Shown here one piece after another: positions 49,769 through 55,768 of a stretch of DNA of 64,000 nucleotides (positions are counted from its first letter, which is position 1; each line of letters starts with the position of its first letter). A model generated the notes under the pieces. That model saw only the letters and a list, made by a program, of their open reading frames with translations. It did no database searches and was not told where the DNA came from. This DNA comes from Escherichia phage PECP20. A program made the position numbers and the translations under genes. The DNA is taken from sequence record OQ873415.1; one strand, 5' to 3'.

Positions 49769-50668
49769 TTATTCCTCGATTACGACATCTTCGTATTTAG
49801 GTATATTATATGGTGAAGAAATTAAAGCATTAAAGTAGATGAACTCACCAAGACCTGGATGGAATACTTCTTCAGGATTTTCGAAATATTGAATCTTCGG
49901 GCGTCCTTTAAGAATTTGATAGTACTCAGTTTTAGTTGGTTTAAAAATTCGAATCAGCGCTTCTTCAGGATACTTATTTCTGTCGAAGCTATTATTTGGA
50001 TCGGTTATATAAAGCGGTTGACCTAATTGAATTGCACATTCAACCACTTGTTCAAAACGATAACATGGGTCACTAATTCGAAATGGATGAAAAATACCAT
50101 CTAGATGAATAGGAGCCAAATCACCTACAAGACGCTGCATGATGGAAGGACGTATAACTTTCTGAGTTACGATAATCTTATTACCATCTGCACCTGCGTT
50201 AACCAGCACTTCTTTTTGACGTTCATTCAACACGGTAGTTTGAAGTGAACGATTAACTGACAACATATCGGTTTTTAAGAATTCGTCAATATAAAAACGT
50301 TGTTTATTAGGGTCTGCAGTGATATTGAAATTGAATTCTACATCAAAAGCGCCGCCATAACCAGTGATATCTGTGATTAGAAAATCACAATCATAATAAT
50401 CAATTAATGAATCAACCACAAATTCATTTTCAGTCCAGAAATATTTACGAGTGTTATACGCGTTATCTTTATACCATAATGGAACAAACTTAAATTCTGG
50501 GAAAAGACGTTCGCATTCTTTAATATCAGATGCATTACGTGGATATGTAATCACATCACCCGGATTAGCACGGTGCAAATGAAGTTGGAAGTTGCCATCC
50601 TTAAGGATAGCATACTGTCCAGTTTCATAAGACCGCATACTCAAGATTGGTACGCGGAAAATAGCCAT
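49769..50668 (-). CDS. hypothetical protein occupying T4 beta-gt locus (possible transferase)
   Basis: 299 aa; no confident motif (a DCD tripeptide after a hydrophobic stretch could be a DxD); translationally coupled to flanking genes. Confidence 0.45.
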   Translation of the reverse strand: MAIFRVPILSMRSYETGQYAILKDGNFQLHLHRANPGDVITYPRNASDIKECERLFPEFKFVPLWYKDNAYNTRKYFWTENEFVVDSLIDYYDCDFLITDITGYGGAFDVEFNFNITADPNKQRFYIDEFLKTDMLSVNRSLQTTVLNERQKEVLVNAGADGNKIIVTQKVIRPSIMQRLVGDLAPIHLDGIFHPFRISDPCYRFEQVVECAIQLGQPLYITDPNNSFDRNKYPEEALIRIFKPTKTEYYQILKGRPKIQYFENPEEVFHPGLGEFIYFNALISSPYNIPKYEDVVIEE

Positions 50669-51384
50669 TAGTCAAGGAATCCTTTAACATAATCAAAATC
50701 ACGTTCAAACACATGGGCGCTTACCATGGTATGAGTATAATCACCAACTTCTACACCGCATTCGTTAGCGATATAATGAAGTAATTTTCCTTGGAGATAA
50801 AAATCCAACTGCATAACAACAGCACAGTTCTGAGAACGCATATGACAGTGGGTATAAAGCTTACCATCACGAATATAATAAGTTACTGAGTCAGTACATG
50901 GATATTCAAGTGTTTCGTCCGAATCAAGCAAAGCCTGATCAGAACTTTCTAGAATTTGGAACACAACTCTTCGAGAGTTAGGTTTTTCTTTAAGTTCTTT
51001 TAGAAGAGTTGGTAATTGGGCCGCAATGCGAGGGCCATAGAAAGTGTTGAAGTTCGCCGGCAAAACATCTGATTTTGGTTTAGAAATAAATTTAGCGACA
51101 TTAGGATATGCCTTAAACGCTTCTTCTGCGTTGGTACCACCAGAAATCATAAACTTCCAGAAGTCTTCGGCATATTCATAAGAGATGCGGTTAATACGTG
51201 GGTCGGTCATTTTGAATGATGATGGAGTGTCAACAACTACTGTCATAGACCCAATTTCATTACAACGTCCAATACGAGAATCAGTTACGAATTCGGGGTT
51301 TTCTAAAATTTCACGATTGACTGCTTTAAATGCGGTTTGAAAATCTGCGGCTTTGATATATTTCATTGTGTTATGTTTTCCCAT
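50668..51384 (-). CDS. 42: Thymidylate-synthase-fold pyrimidine hydroxymethylase, gp42-like (dCMP hydroxymethylase)
   Basis: 238 aa; motifs NSRR, PCTDS (catalytic Cys), MRSQN and C-terminal SAHVFERDF parallel T4 gp42 NPDSRRG / MCTNT / MRSND / SLHVYSRHF as recalled. Confidence 0.6.
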   Translation of the reverse strand: MGKHNTMKYIKAADFQTAFKAVNREILENPEFVTDSRIGRCNEIGSMTVVVDTPSSFKMTDPRINRISYEYAEDFWKFMISGGTNAEEAFKAYPNVAKFISKPKSDVLPANFNTFYGPRIAAQLPTLLKELKEKPNSRRVVFQILESSDQALLDSDETLEYPCTDSVTYYIRDGKLYTHCHMRSQNCAVVMQLDFYLQGKLLHYIANECGVEVGDYTHTMVSAHVFERDFDYVKGFLD

Positions 51385-51426: not shown

Positions 51427-51666
51427 TTATTTGAATTTCTTGACAATGTTGATATAACGTAAAGCTTCAGAATCTATACTTCCAAGAACACTATGAAGGA
51501 ATGCATCAGTGTAGTATTCCAATTGAACAGGTTCTTTAATCACTTTAGCCGCTTTGGTTTCAAACAGGCCCATAAGGGCCTTTTTAAGAATTTGTTCGTT
51601 AGTGTTCAGTTTCATAGTCAAAATCTCTTCGTTAAGTTTATAATTAAAACTTTTTCTAGAAATCAT
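51427..51666 (-). CDS. hypothetical small protein
   Basis: 79-aa ORF, coupled to upstream gene (ATGA-type overlap). Confidence 0.35.
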   Translation of the reverse strand: MISRKSFNYKLNEEILTMKLNTNEQILKKALMGLFETKAAKVIKEPVQLEYYTDAFLHSVLGSIDSEALRYINIVKKFK

Positions 51667-52823
51667 TCCGGGTACCTCAAAGCGTCATCAGAGTTAGTTA
51701 TATCAATAATAGATATGGAGTTTTCTGCTAACCCGTTTTTAGATAATTGACGTTTATAATACCTTTCACAATATGTACACGTTGACCCACAGATTTCATT
51801 AGCACAATCAAAATCTGGATGTCTGAACCACCTTTTTTCTAAAAAGCCATCTAACAAAGAGGTTTCAATATTTACTGTATGTGAAAACTCAGTCTCATTT
51901 TCAAGAGTGAAAATAGTCTCTAAAGGCTTCCACAGTTCTAACAAATTACCTTCAAACTTTTCAGAAGCGTATGCTTCAAGAACTTTCAAAATGTAGTCTG
52001 TGCTACCTGTACGTCCTGAAACTTTGAATTGAGTGATACCAATATCATTATAAAGTTTCAAATCTTGAGGACGAACAAAACGAGTTCTCAACCAGTTAAA
52101 TGGGTCTGTATCACGAGCTTTAATACAGTGCTGCATAGGATATCCATTTAAGGATTTAGCATCATCAGCGGTAACATCAGTACTATGGAAAATATAGCAA
52201 GAGTCACGATAACTACAATGTGTTGTATACCCTTTACCAGCATTAGAACAGAACTCATTTACAAGAACTTCAAATATTATATTGTTCTTATTGCAAAACT
52301 CTGCTGCACGCTTCAGGAAAGAAACTGAACGGTTCTTATGAATTCCGCAACAGACCTTTTTGATGTTATATTGGTCATGTAAGTATTTGATTTGAGTTAC
52401 CGCATCGACATGTAGAATTGTTGAAACTTCAATCTCAATATCTTTATTGACTTCACGAACAATTTCCATAACAACAGGGTTAGCGATAGTAATACGCCAT
52501 ACGCCTATTGACCAAAGATACTGAACATAATCCTGAATAGCTTTCTTCTTCCACTCAACTAGTTCTCTTTTTGAACCAGGATTTATCGTGTTGAGTGTAT
52601 AGTTAAAGCAAATACCTAATTCGTTACAACGTTTAACGTAGTCTTCTAACATCTTTTTGTCAACGTCAGGAAGCCTAAAATCAGGTCTGGCTGCTACAAA
52701 AGCCATTTCTCTTGTAGAGCCATATACTTCGTTTATCAAGCTATTAGGATAGGTTTTATTGAGCTCTACGATTTTATCAAGAAGAGCTAAATCAAAATTC
52801 GTTCCGATTTTAAAAGTATTCAT
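51663..52823 (-). CDS. Cys-rich putative metalloenzyme (possible Fe-S enzyme, U32-like?)
   Basis: 386 aa; many Cys including C-terminal CANEICGSTCTYC (C-x4-C-x3-C-x2-C) and HCSYRDSC resembling the U32 signature CxSYxxxC; assignment speculative. Confidence 0.45.
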   Translation of the reverse strand: MNTFKIGTNFDLALLDKIVELNKTYPNSLINEVYGSTREMAFVAARPDFRLPDVDKKMLEDYVKRCNELGICFNYTLNTINPGSKRELVEWKKKAIQDYVQYLWSIGVWRITIANPVVMEIVREVNKDIEIEVSTILHVDAVTQIKYLHDQYNIKKVCCGIHKNRSVSFLKRAAEFCNKNNIIFEVLVNEFCSNAGKGYTTHCSYRDSCYIFHSTDVTADDAKSLNGYPMQHCIKARDTDPFNWLRTRFVRPQDLKLYNDIGITQFKVSGRTGSTDYILKVLEAYASEKFEGNLLELWKPLETIFTLENETEFSHTVNIETSLLDGFLEKRWFRHPDFDCANEICGSTCTYCERYYKRQLSKNGLAENSISIIDITNSDDALRYPE

Positions 52824-52879: not shown

Positions 52880-53281
52880 TTATAGATTTGGTTTATATGA
52901 TTTAAATGTTTCGAATTCGCCTTTATTCATAAGAGCTTTGAATTCGTCAGGACGCATAGCTTTGTCGTCGATAATCCAATCATATACTGGTTTATGTGTT
53001 AGCAAATTATGGTACTTCAAACCAATGTTTTCCAAGTTCTGAATCAGACTTGGGAGAATGTCAATTGCTATACGACCAGGACCTACCGACTTCATACCAC
53101 GGGCAGTGTAAAGCGTTATGGTATGCCCTGCATCATACAGGGCATTAATGGCAGACACCATTTCGACGTCTGGTTTGAAGTTCACGTAATCACGATTGTT
53201 ATTCCACTCTGTTATACAATCATCGACATCAAAACAAAGATTAAGCATGTTTTCTACACGGTGCATTAGATTCGTTCCCAT
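52880..53281 (-). CDS. putative HAD-superfamily phosphatase-like protein
   Basis: 133 aa; N-terminal FDVDDC (DxDx motif I-like) followed by TLYTARG; weak. Confidence 0.4.
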   Translation of the reverse strand: MGTNLMHRVENMLNLCFDVDDCITEWNNNRDYVNFKPDVEMVSAINALYDAGHTITLYTARGMKSVGPGRIAIDILPSLIQNLENIGLKYHNLLTHKPVYDWIIDDKAMRPDEFKALMNKGEFETFKSYKPNL

Positions 53282-54951
53282 TGATGAGTGATATCGCCGC
53301 CGATTGGACGATAGGAAACACCAGTTTCTTTATCAGTTAGTACCCATTTACCAGGATTTTTTGTAATCAGAGTAGCCGTTACAGGTTCTGCTACGTCATA
53401 ACTAATAGAGCCGTCTTGAAGTACACGGCCCATGTTACGTAATTGCTTAGTCAGAAGTTCCATACCTTTATAATATGCGGCAACCGCTTTAAGTGGATTA
53501 TTCTTGAAATAACCACCTAATGCAATCCAGATAATTGCTACTGCCAAATGATGATACTCGTTAAACGAACTCATCTTTCCATATTTGTAAACTAATGGAT
53601 TGATGTTAATAGTCAAATTACAAGTTGTTTCATCAATAGTAAACTGACCCCAGGTCGGATTAGCATTGAATTCATCATAACCTGAAACAGCATAAAGCAC
53701 TTTAGCTTCATCATACAATTTTGGCCCGTAAATCTTGGTTTCACCAAAATATCCACGAGGGTCGATAAACTTGACTTCGCCGTTATCGGTAATCATAGTA
53801 TTACTGAAGTTCGGGTCACCATGAATAACAGAGTACTGTCCCTGAGAACGGTTATGATAACGAATAAGATGTTCTAAAGCTTGTTTCAACATTGGCTTCA
53901 GACGTCCAATCTTAGTGTAGTTCACATGTGTGATTTTACCAAATGAATCAATCAATGGCTGAATGCTTTCACAACGATCAATAACTTTCGTATAGAACTC
54001 TTTAGTGAAATCACGGCGAACAGTTTCAGGACTTACAAAATAAGTGTCCGTGCTGAATTTCAGTGCATCTAAAATTGCATCAACAATTTGTGGACGAGCA
54101 AGACTTGATTTGGATTTAATATATTCAAATGCCGGCTTACCTTTAATACGTTCCATTTCAAAATTATTTTCATTTACCGAAACTAACTGAGGAACTGAAT
54201 CTGATTTCACTTTCAAATACCATGAAATCTCATCTTTTTGAAGAGCTCGACCTTGTTCGGTTAACGCGAATTTAGTTACAGTTTCTTCGCCAATTTCAAC
54301 TGCATTAAAACTACGATTCAGTTCACGAACTTCATGAGCCTTTTCAAGTTTAGGCATATCACCTAAATCAATTAGATTCATAAGCTCTGATTTATTGAAT
54401 GCACTGCCGTAAAGGAATTCTACGAAATCACGACCTTTGCAGTATTCGTGAATTTCCTCATCAGTAGAACCCATGTAGAATTCCCAGTCTTTGAACTGAT
54501 AAATTCCTACAACATTACCACCTGTTGAACCTACGTTAGTGATATTTTCACCATCGAAATTATATCGACATTCATCACCCTTAACATAGATTGCGTTAAC
54601 ATTCCAAGACCATGAACCAAAGTCAGGAATAATATCACACCAGTTAACAATTACGTTATGGCCATCTAAATCTTTGTATAATTTAGCAAGAGCATAAGCA
54701 GAACCATACGCTTCATCAACTGTACGAATAGTCACATTGAACCCTTCTTGCTCGCAATAAGCTCGAACAGTTTCAGCAAATTTTGAATGAACTACTACAA
54801 TAATTTCATCTGCGCCAAGGTCAGAATAAATTGTATACAAATTGCTCAGAATAGTGTCTTGTTTATAGTTAACAAGCACCTTAGGAATATGGTGAGTAAT
54901 TGGATATAAACGAGTTGCTAATCCAGCACCAAGAATAACAGCTTTTTTCAT
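53266..54951 (-). CDS. Bifunctional sugar-1-phosphate nucleotidyltransferase (N-term) / APH-like anomeric sugar kinase (C-term)
   Basis: 561 aa; N-terminal MKKAVILGAGLATRLYPIT (G-x-G-T-R-L nucleotidyltransferase motif); C-terminal VIHGDPNFSNTMITDNGEVKFIDPRGYFG (HxDxxxxN catalytic loop plus IDxR of choline-kinase/APH fold). Confidence 0.6.
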   Translation of the reverse strand: MKKAVILGAGLATRLYPITHHIPKVLVNYKQDTILSNLYTIYSDLGADEIIVVVHSKFAETVRAYCEQEGFNVTIRTVDEAYGSAYALAKLYKDLDGHNVIVNWCDIIPDFGSWSWNVNAIYVKGDECRYNFDGENITNVGSTGGNVVGIYQFKDWEFYMGSTDEEIHEYCKGRDFVEFLYGSAFNKSELMNLIDLGDMPKLEKAHEVRELNRSFNAVEIGEETVTKFALTEQGRALQKDEISWYLKVKSDSVPQLVSVNENNFEMERIKGKPAFEYIKSKSSLARPQIVDAILDALKFSTDTYFVSPETVRRDFTKEFYTKVIDRCESIQPLIDSFGKITHVNYTKIGRLKPMLKQALEHLIRYHNRSQGQYSVIHGDPNFSNTMITDNGEVKFIDPRGYFGETKIYGPKLYDEAKVLYAVSGYDEFNANPTWGQFTIDETTCNLTININPLVYKYGKMSSFNEYHHLAVAIIWIALGGYFKNNPLKAVAAYYKGMELLTKQLRNMGRVLQDGSISYDVAEPVTATLITKNPGKWVLTDKETGVSYRPIGGDITHQWERI

Positions 54952-54992: not shown

Positions 54993-55136
54993 CTAGTTAA
55001 AGCATTCATACTTTGCCTGTAGACCAATCATAATCCATCCAATTACAAGTGTTGGAATCATTACTGGAGCCGTTAAGCCCCAGTAGATAGTCATGGCAAG
55101 CATCAATAGTAAAAGTCCTATTGTTATTGCTTTCAT
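54993..55136 (-). CDS. small hydrophobic protein (47 aa)
   Basis: Hand-translated: MKAITIGLLLLMLAMTIYWGLTAPVMIPTLVIGWIMIGLQAKYECFN; ATG overlaps stop of SIS gene; possible Imm-like membrane peptide. Confidence 0.3.
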   Translation of the reverse strand: MKAITIGLLLLMLAMTIYWGLTAPVMIPTLVIGWIMIGLQAKYECFN

Positions 55137-55768
55137 TGTTCGCCTCGTAACATGGCACCTAGTGCACCACCAGGGTGGAACTTAAGGAAGTCATTAGAGG
55201 TAAATCCACGTTCAGACGAAAGGTTGATAGCAAACGTATCGATAAGCGCTAACAACAATGTAGTGGACATGGTCGGAGCCAGAGAATTCTCATCAACCTC
55301 TACCGCGATGCCTGTACAGAACGTATAATCAAAAAGAGCTTCGTATTCTTGCGGAATGTCAGGGTTACAATGTAACAGAATCTGTTTAACCTGAGGACGA
55401 ATCATACGAAGATGTTTAGCAACACCTATCATTTCTTCAGTCTTACCAGAACGACTGATGTGAACTAATACATCATTAGGTGCAATAAATCCTGCGTCGC
55501 CATGAGAATAATGCCCGGTGTTCAAATACATGCTAGGAATACCTAGTGAAGCAAAAGTCTCGGAAGCTTTAGTTGCGATATTAGCGTTCTTACCAACACC
55601 TGTAATAATTACTCGGCTTTCATAATTACTCAGTCCAGGGCGACGAAGAGTTTCAAGAATAGCATTATATCGGGCAGAGTTTTGACTAATTACTTTAGCC
55701 ATAGTGGCAAGAGATGAAGCTTGTTTTACGATTGCGTCAATAGCGATAGTGATTGGTGTAGTTTTCAT
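55133..55768 (-). CDS. SIS-domain sugar-phosphate isomerase (arabinose-5-phosphate isomerase KdsD/GutQ-like, no CBS domains)
   Basis: 211 aa; ITGVGKNANIA...HGDAGFIAPNDVLVHISRSGKTEE...APTMSTTLLLALIDTF...FLKFHPGGALG parallels the KdsD SIS domain motifs as recalled. Confidence 0.65.
   Translation of the reverse strand: MKTTPITIAIDAIVKQASSLATMAKVISQNSARYNAILETLRRPGLSNYESRVIITGVGKNANIATKASETFASLGIPSMYLNTGHYSHGDAGFIAPNDVLVHISRSGKTEEMIGVAKHLRMIRPQVKQILLHCNPDIPQEYEALFDYTFCTGIAVEVDENSLAPTMSTTLLLALIDTFAINLSSERGFTSNDFLKFHPGGALGAMLRGEQ

Follow-up and report, generated by a model that had tools for sequence, protein, structure and literature searches.

Positions 53266-54951 of a 64,000-nucleotide (nt) stretch of Escherichia phage PECP20 (sequence record OQ873415.1; the whole stretch is called the window below) encode, on the minus strand, a single protein of 561 amino acids (aa) in which a sugar-1-phosphate nucleotidyltransferase (NTase) domain is joined to a small-molecule kinase domain of the aminoglycoside-phosphotransferase (APH)/choline-kinase fold. 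The window is Mosigvirus sequence, that of an RB69-like T-even phage, and this open reading frame (ORF) is very probably the Mosigvirus orthologue of AfhE, the bifunctional enzyme making uridine diphosphate (UDP)-D-arabinofuranose (UDP-Araf) for the glycosylation of 5-hydroxycytosine in phage DNA. The architecture, the fold, the catalytic residues, the gene linkage and the 97% identity to the protein of phage HY126 are results of the present analysis, while the two enzymatic activities, D-arabinose-5-phosphate (Ara5P) as substrate of the kinase and UDP as the carrier are taken second-hand from the literature, as related by Lee et al. The fusion of an NTase with an APH-like kinase had been proposed in a sequence-only reading of the same DNA, and it is borne out by a Pfam NTP_transferase match, a profile match to APH(2'') and an AlphaFold2 (AF2) model.

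A single complete ORF fills the interval from ATG to TAA (stop included). Read on the plus strand the same interval is broken by many stops, which places the ORF on the minus strand. A GAGGA Shine-Dalgarno sequence lies 7 nt upstream of the ATG at 54951, and the TAA overlaps the ATG of the downstream HAD phosphatase gene (TAATG). The two domains were correctly recognized in the earlier reading, although they are larger (aa 1-205 and 210-507) than the ~110 and ~200 residues assigned to them there, and a tail (aa 508-561), which had gone unmentioned, follows the kinase.

The N-terminal half is matched at aa 3-99 by Pfam NTP_transferase (PF00483) with 38.4 bits, well over the curated cutoff of 21.2. 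The best Protein Data Bank (PDB) match of the whole-family profile is HddC (E 2.4e-14), 201 residues of the domain were aligned to LicC with 21% identity, and the half is modelled as a Rossmann-like α/β/α fold superimposable on solved members. The string LGAGLATRLYPIT is found at aa 7-19. The G-x-G-T-R-(x)n-K signature of sugar-1-phosphate nucleotidyltransferases is present as G10-L-A12-T13-R14 ... K24; the motif had been written as G-x-G-T-R-L-x-P-x-T, which holds except for the second glycine of the canonical GxGTR, an alanine (A12) in the phage clade and a glycine in distant four-domain homologues. An identity as GlmU, the label found in several records, was rejected, the protein being devoid of the left-handed β-helix acetyltransferase domain and all GlmU scores lying far under cutoff.

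The C-terminal half gave only sub-threshold matches in the Pfam scan (fructosamine kinase, EcKL, RIO and APH). A family profile built from the kinase alone matches APH(2'') 3uzr with E 1.8e-6, the alignment with choline kinase covers 241 residues, and the match to PHROG 21938 spans aa 211-517. The ATP-binding lysine of strand β3 (K227), the αC glutamate (E241), the HxDxxxxN loop and the Mg-binding aspartate (D397) all fall in register with those of APH(2''). The second string, VIHGDPNFSNTMITDNGEVKFIDPRGYFG, occupies aa 375-403 and contains H377-G-D379-PNFS-N384 and I-D397-PRG, the Brenner motif and the downstream Mg-binding aspartate of APH/choline-kinase-like kinases; hence the HGDxxxxN and IDxR elements claimed beforehand are both present. 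The bilobal kinase fold is closest to small-molecule kinases and not to protein kinases: no eukaryotic-type (Ser/Thr/Tyr) protein kinase appeared among the top 60 matches of the AF2 model, and a protein-kinase reading was rejected, as just weak RIO and Bud32 matches (E 0.01-0.04), limited to the catalytic loop, were obtained. Both halves thus found a known fold. The narrower assignment of the kinase to the NahK/AmgK type did not stand, since no such family model was matched in Pfam and NCBIfam at E ≤ 0.1.

Conservation was counted in an alignment of 43 homologues, with identity down to 29%, out of 317 homologues found. The residues G10, R14, K24, W104, D106, D195, G197, D198 and K201 are invariant in the N-terminal half, as are K227, E241, G378, D379, S383, N384, I396, D397, P398, R399 and G400 in the C-terminal half; H377 is conserved in at least 90% of these homologues and is invariant in the four-domain fusions. 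Of these residues, D106, D195 and D198 are candidates for the Mg-binding aspartates known from LicC and RmlA. The conservation pattern of both halves is far beyond chance. The AF2 model obtained from this 43-sequence alignment reached a mean predicted local distance difference test score (pLDDT) of 94 and a predicted template modelling score of 0.90, with all residues at 70 or more. The tail was modelled at pLDDT 80-88 with strands at 546-549 and 558-560, and is missing in ~40% of the homologues (alignment gap fraction 0.3-0.5). Single-sequence phmmer against the PDB matched only the N-terminal 95 residues and left the kinase half without a match, and no full-length structure of the 561-aa protein was found there by phmmer and family profile searches.

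The connection with AfhE was established through the genome of HY126, which was recovered (PP658200.1) at 100% identity by tblastn with the sequence of PDB 9iqc. The HY126 cluster has its genes in the same order as the window, namely isomerase, 47-aa ORF, NTase-kinase, HAD phosphatase, U32-family gene, ThyA-like hydroxylase and glycosyltransferase, and its only NTase-kinase gene, XAN60479.1, encodes a protein identical to that of the window at 543 of 562 positions (97%) over the full length. To judge from sequence, the window protein is the orthologue of the enzyme reported as biochemically characterised, sharing with it the two domains and the flanking genes. HY126 AfhE is reported as a bifunctional Ara5P 1-kinase/UDP-D-arabinose pyrophosphorylase (He et al., Nat Chem Biol 2026, as related in PMC13326640), and HY126 AfhF, in the same account, as a Mg-dependent phosphatase converting the 1,5-bisphosphate into the 1-phosphate (PMC13326640). 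RB69 gp52:53 was equated with HY126 AfhE by Lee et al. 2026, who modelled it as a MurU/LicC-like N-terminal domain followed by an APH/choline-kinase-like C-terminal domain (PMC13326640). Thomas et al. 2018 found arabinose in RB69 DNA and showed that a sequencing error had divided a single 561-aa gene, their ORF53_52c, into ORF053c and ORF052c; they also noted its NTP-transferase-like matches and bacterial homologues that are joined to a SIS domain (PMC6024577). The RB69 GenBank record still splits the gene into p052 and p053 by this one-base error; it is intact in the window, which belongs to the same genus and carries it at the same locus and, once the error is corrected, with the same length. 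The modified base is arabinosylated 5-hydroxycytosine, and not hydroxymethylcytosine, the ThyA homologue being a flavin-dependent 5-hydroxy-dCMP synthase (PMC13326640). Therefore the gene, its architecture and its role in the pathway were already published (2018, 2025-2026), and the biochemistry too according to the literature: the protein was described in 2018 (PMC6024577) and had been characterised by 2026 according to Lee et al. (PMC13326640).

From these data a route can be proposed. The upstream SIS isomerase would turn host ribulose-5-phosphate into Ara5P. The C-terminal APH-fold kinase would then phosphorylate with ATP the anomeric C1-OH of Ara5P, yielding arabinose-1,5-bisphosphate, with the participation of K227 and E241, of D379 as catalytic base, and of N384 and D397 for Mg. 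The HAD phosphatase, product of the translationally coupled downstream gene, would remove the 5-phosphate to give arabinofuranose-1-phosphate, from which the N-terminal NTase (G10, R14, K24, D106 and D195/D198) would produce UDP-Araf and pyrophosphate at the expense of UTP. DNA arabinosyltransferases would finally move the arabinose from UDP-Araf onto 5-hydroxycytosine in the DNA. Hence, of the three steps from Ara5P to UDP-Araf, the fused domains would carry out the first and the third, which are not consecutive. The earlier proposal that a free sugar is channelled directly to a nucleoside diphosphate (NDP)-sugar does not agree with this scheme, because HY126 AfhE is reported to act on Ara5P and a separate HAD phosphatase, AfhF, intervenes, at least as PMC13326640 presents them. 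We infer that phosphorylation of C1 while O5 is blocked by phosphate locks the furanose ring; because the ring would thus be fixed, the kinase could precede the phosphatase and no pyranose-furanose mutase would be needed. The homologues that carry HAD, SIS, NTase and kinase on a single chain, with the catalytic residues retained, provide Rosetta-stone support for the pathway.

Several observations weigh against this assignment. Table 1 of PMC13326640 has the phosphatase turning Ara5P into free arabinose and the kinase acting on free arabinose, unlike the text of the same paper which, citing in vitro work on HY126, runs from Ara5P through arabinose-1,5-bisphosphate to arabinose-1-phosphate. The activities, as well as the equivalence of AfhE with XAN60479.1, are drawn from the description given by Lee et al. 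and from synteny. Between the window protein and XAN60479.1 there are 19 differences, of which 12 are crowded into aa 242-265 of the kinase N-lobe and none affects a catalytic residue. Finally, its Pfam APH (PF01636) score is 14.1 bits, under the cutoff of 23.2, so that of the two Pfam matches expected from the sequence-only reading that to NTP_transferase passed its cutoff and that to APH stayed below it. Pfam APH is matched individually by 14 of 25 relatives (best E 1.9e-10), and the homologue P0082 scores 28.6 bits with it.

A salvage-type route, in which the HAD phosphatase likewise makes free D-arabinose and a NahK/AmgK-like anomeric kinase and the NTase then act in consecutive steps, with possible channelling, is unlikely. 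In the account of the HY126 experiments given in the text of PMC13326640, the kinase substrate is Ara5P and the phosphatase substrate arabinose-1,5-bisphosphate. Free arabinose would be mainly pyranose at equilibrium, and the DNA carries arabinofuranose by nuclear magnetic resonance (PMC13326640). Moreover, R326, R399, K417 and K488, which lie in the kinase C-lobe outside the assigned canonical catalytic motifs, might suit a phosphorylated (anionic) acceptor, and the NahK/AmgK models were left unmatched, as stated above. Another possibility is a LicC-LicA-like fusion that would activate choline or some other amino-alcohol or non-sugar substrate as its CDP derivative. This is scarcely credible: the identity to LicC is just 21%, an Ara5P isomerase and a sugar-phosphate-type HAD phosphatase are encoded on either side of the gene and belong to the same chain in distant homologues, genes for a 5-hydroxy-dCMP synthase and a glycosyltransferase lie nearby, and RB69-type DNA contains arabinose and not choline (PMC6024577, PMC13326640).

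The preferred pathway from Ara5P could also operate in the window phage with another carrier, GDP-, CDP-, dTDP- or ADP-arabinose replacing UDP-arabinose. HddC, the best PDB match of the profile, is a guanylyltransferase, homologues are annotated in records as 'mannose-1-phosphate guanyltransferase', and for RB69 the wording of Lee et al. is 'NDP-arabinose, potentially UDP-arabinose' (PMC13326640). However, in the description available there, HY126 AfhE and AfhF are reported to 'prepare the UDP-arabinose' and AfhE is given a 'UDP-D-arabinose pyrophosphorylase' activity, and the glycosyltransferase matches indicate UDP-sugar users (PMC13326640). Only positions 92 and 193 distinguish the NTase domains of the window and HY126 proteins, and a carrier other than UDP is very improbable.

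The arrangement proposed for UDP-Araf synthesis follows the logic of the heptose pathways. In the synthesis of ADP-heptose (HldE, GmhB and GmhA) and GDP-heptose (HddA, GmhB and HddC), a SIS isomerase, an anomeric sugar-phosphate kinase, a HAD bisphosphate phosphatase and a nucleotidyltransferase are likewise used, and HldE is also a kinase-NTase fusion that serves steps 1 and 3. The folds differ, since HldE combines a kinase of the ribokinase (PfkB) fold with an NTase of the cytidylyltransferase type, while HddA belongs to the GHMP kinases, and the APH fold occurs in none of them; the substrate is a heptose there and a pentofuranose for the window enzyme. The AmgK-MurU pair of Pseudomonas MurNAc recycling, and NahK, are unlike the window fusion in being separate proteins that act on free sugars in consecutive steps. 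LicA-LicC, in turn, has choline as substrate and CDP as carrier, works without an intervening phosphatase and has an unrelated genomic context. A further parallel for the kinase is MtnK (5-methylthioribose 1-kinase), of APH/choline-kinase fold, which transfers phosphate to the anomeric OH of a 5-substituted pentofuranose and has a similar 'IDPxx' Mg-binding segment.

The genes surrounding the fusion accord with this role (Table 1). On the minus strand, the order is DNA polymerase, SIS isomerase, a 47-aa hydrophobic ORF, the 561-aa gene, a 128-aa HAD phosphatase and a U32-family protein, followed by a 79-aa ORF, a thymidylate-synthase-like gene, a 299-aa glycosyltransferase candidate, a nucleotide kinase and UvsX. 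The flanking DNA polymerase is the homologue of T4 gp43, as in RB69. Genes for the Ara5P isomerase, the HAD phosphatase, the 5-hydroxy-dCMP synthase and the DNA glycosyltransferase are all present and collinear with those of RB69, p000v and HY126. The 7-kb segment 49000-56000 shows 99.2% nucleotide identity to phage p000v, whose orthologue of the 561-aa gene is annotated 'hypothetical protein', and >97% to ~150 other records.

Table 1. Positions of the NTase-kinase gene, of its domains and motifs, of linked genes and of distant single-chain homologues (window coordinates unless a contig is named).
Feature	Position	Strand	Basis or remark
Complete 561-aa ORF	53266..54951	-	Orthologue of RB69 ORF53_52c (gp52:53) and HY126 AfhE
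N-terminal sugar-1-phosphate NTase domain, aa 1-205	54337..54951	-	Minimal LicC/MurU/HddC type without β-helix domain
NTP-binding signature G8-A-G10-L-A-T-R14-L-Y-P-I-T ... K24	54880..54930	-	G10, R14 and K24 invariant in 43 homologues and 12 four-domain fusions
APH/choline-kinase-fold small-molecule kinase domain, aa 210-507	53431..54324	-	Reported activity of orthologue: Ara5P 1-kinase
Catalytic loop H377-G-D379-x4-N384 (Brenner motif) and Mg-binding I-D397-P-R-G segment	53743..53829	-	Conservation; aligned to HxDxxxxN ... ID of APH(2'')
C-terminal 54-aa β-rich tail, aa 508-561	53269..53430	-	AF2 strands and alignment gaps
HAD-type phosphatase, 128 aa, AfhF orthologue	52880..53266	-	127/128 identical to PDB 9iqw and HY126 neighbour; TIGR01689 EcbF-BcbF phosphatase, E 1.9e-13
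SIS-domain Ara5P isomerase, 211 aa, KdsD/GutQ-like, without CBS domains	55133..55768	-	Pfam SIS; KpsF/GutQ E 8.5e-32; KdsD E 3.4e-30; 205/211 identical to HY126
Thymidylate-synthase-like 5-hydroxy-dCMP synthase, making the acceptor base for arabinose	50668..51384	-	Pfam Thymidylat_synt; ~97% identical to PDB 9iqc/9ir2; function from PMC13326640
Putative DNA arabinosyltransferase, 299 aa, RB69 gp46:47 orthologue, NDP-arabinose consumer	49769..50668	-	Synteny with RB69p046/047; phrog_3891; function from PMC13326640
HAD-SIS-NTase-kinase fusion P0085	L002 8001-10781		
HAD-SIS-NTase-kinase fusion P0119	L008 10001-12679		
HAD-SIS-NTase-kinase fusions P0088, P0089, P0091 and P0092			

The minus-strand genes are tightly packed, and in several cases the stop codon of one overlaps the start codon of the next; they look like a single transcription unit, with phage-specific promoters outside the reach of the scan that was made. 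In the segment 49000-56000 there was no excess of sigma-70 promoter-like sites (18, with 26.3 expected from shuffled sequence) nor of intrinsic-terminator-like sites (5, with 3.8 expected).

Fusions of this kind had been thought unusual in phages. The search by tblastn showed otherwise, as the gene is carried by 373 of 50,697 phage records from many Straboviridae genera, 176 of them from Escherichia, 57 from Acinetobacter, 25 from Klebsiella and 17 from Vibrio phages, and it has a PHROG family of its own, phrog_4098, labelled 'unknown function'. On a 350-kb T4-like jumbo-phage contig (L007, 7135-12997), the SIS isomerase, a GT2 glycosyltransferase, the NTase-kinase P0082 (37% identical), a HAD hydrolase and a 303-aa thymidylate-synthase homologue form one block. 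Therefore the link of the enzyme with pyrimidine modification is old and widespread.

More distant homologues, with 28-35% identity, are single chains of ~890-955 aa in the order HAD-SIS-NTase-kinase that retain all the catalytic residues. One of them, P0085, is found on a 103-kb giant-virus-like contig adjoining MutS7-HNH and the RNA polymerase genes Rpb2 and Rpb10, and P0091 originates from a eukaryotic transcriptome. On contig L008 two paralogous fusions stand among fucosyltransferase, epimerase and GT2 genes, with no adjoining ThyA-like gene, a context that suggests glycan synthesis rather than DNA modification. The NTase-kinase unit might tentatively be regarded as the core of a general, portable module leading from sugar-phosphate to NDP-sugar and not specific to phage DNA modification, although this is rather doubtful. 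If NDP-D-arabinofuranose is indeed the product of these fusions, a single polypeptide would carry the entire pathway from ribulose-5-phosphate to the activated arabinofuranose in giant viruses, probably for capsid or fibril glycans.

The enzyme would supply the activated sugar for arabinosyl-5-hydroxycytosine, a DNA hypermodification that protects RB69-like phages against restriction enzymes and CRISPR and leaves them open to attack by type IV systems, and it is thus of relevance for phage therapy and for the enzymatic synthesis of UDP-Araf. The value of the present analysis is mainly annotational, as the public annotations of the cluster are misleading. The NTase-kinase is labelled 'hypothetical protein', 'bifunctional protein GlmU' or 'mannose-1-phosphate guanyltransferase'; the HAD phosphatase 'phosphoheptose isomerase' (RefSeq, PHROG 1238) or 'Capsule biosynthesis protein' (PDB 9iqw); and the 5-hydroxy-dCMP synthase 'dCMP hydroxymethylase'.

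Some further features of the locus were observed. The longest ORF for the phosphatase starts at 53281, 15 nt upstream of 53266, the start that is annotated and that the crystallised protein has. Within the 561-aa gene, the patch 54157-54228 (minus strand) that encodes aa 242-265 holds the clustered differences from HY126, including a one-residue indel, and the remaining 537 residues differ at seven; the patch looks like the outcome of mosaicism or recombination between Mosigvirus lineages. Between the isomerase gene and the 561-aa gene lies the conserved, strongly hydrophobic 47-aa ORF MKAITIGLLLLMLAMTIYWGLTAPVMIPTLVIGWIMIGLQAKYECFN (54993-55136, minus strand), with its ATG overlapping the stop codon of the isomerase gene (ATGA). 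In p000v and HY126 it is annotated as hypothetical, as is the shorter RB69p054 at the same locus of RB69, and its product is probably a small membrane protein.

Inside the modification cluster there is also a Peptidase_U32 protein of 386 aa (51663-52823, minus strand), with a Pfam E of 7e-11 and a weak UbiU match; in the PDB no sequence matched it at E ≤ 0.01. To the U32 family belong prephenate-dependent hydroxylases that work without O2: RlhA, which forms 5-hydroxycytidine in 23S rRNA, and TrhP, which forms 5-hydroxyuridine in tRNA, together with UbiU/UbiV (PMC6599085, PMC10990095). The RB69 orthologue was labelled 'sugar or heterocycle reductase' by Lee et al., with no link to hydroxylases drawn there (PMC13326640). 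The U32 protein could provide an anaerobic route to 5-hydroxycytosine, complementing the O2- and flavin-dependent ThyA-like enzyme.

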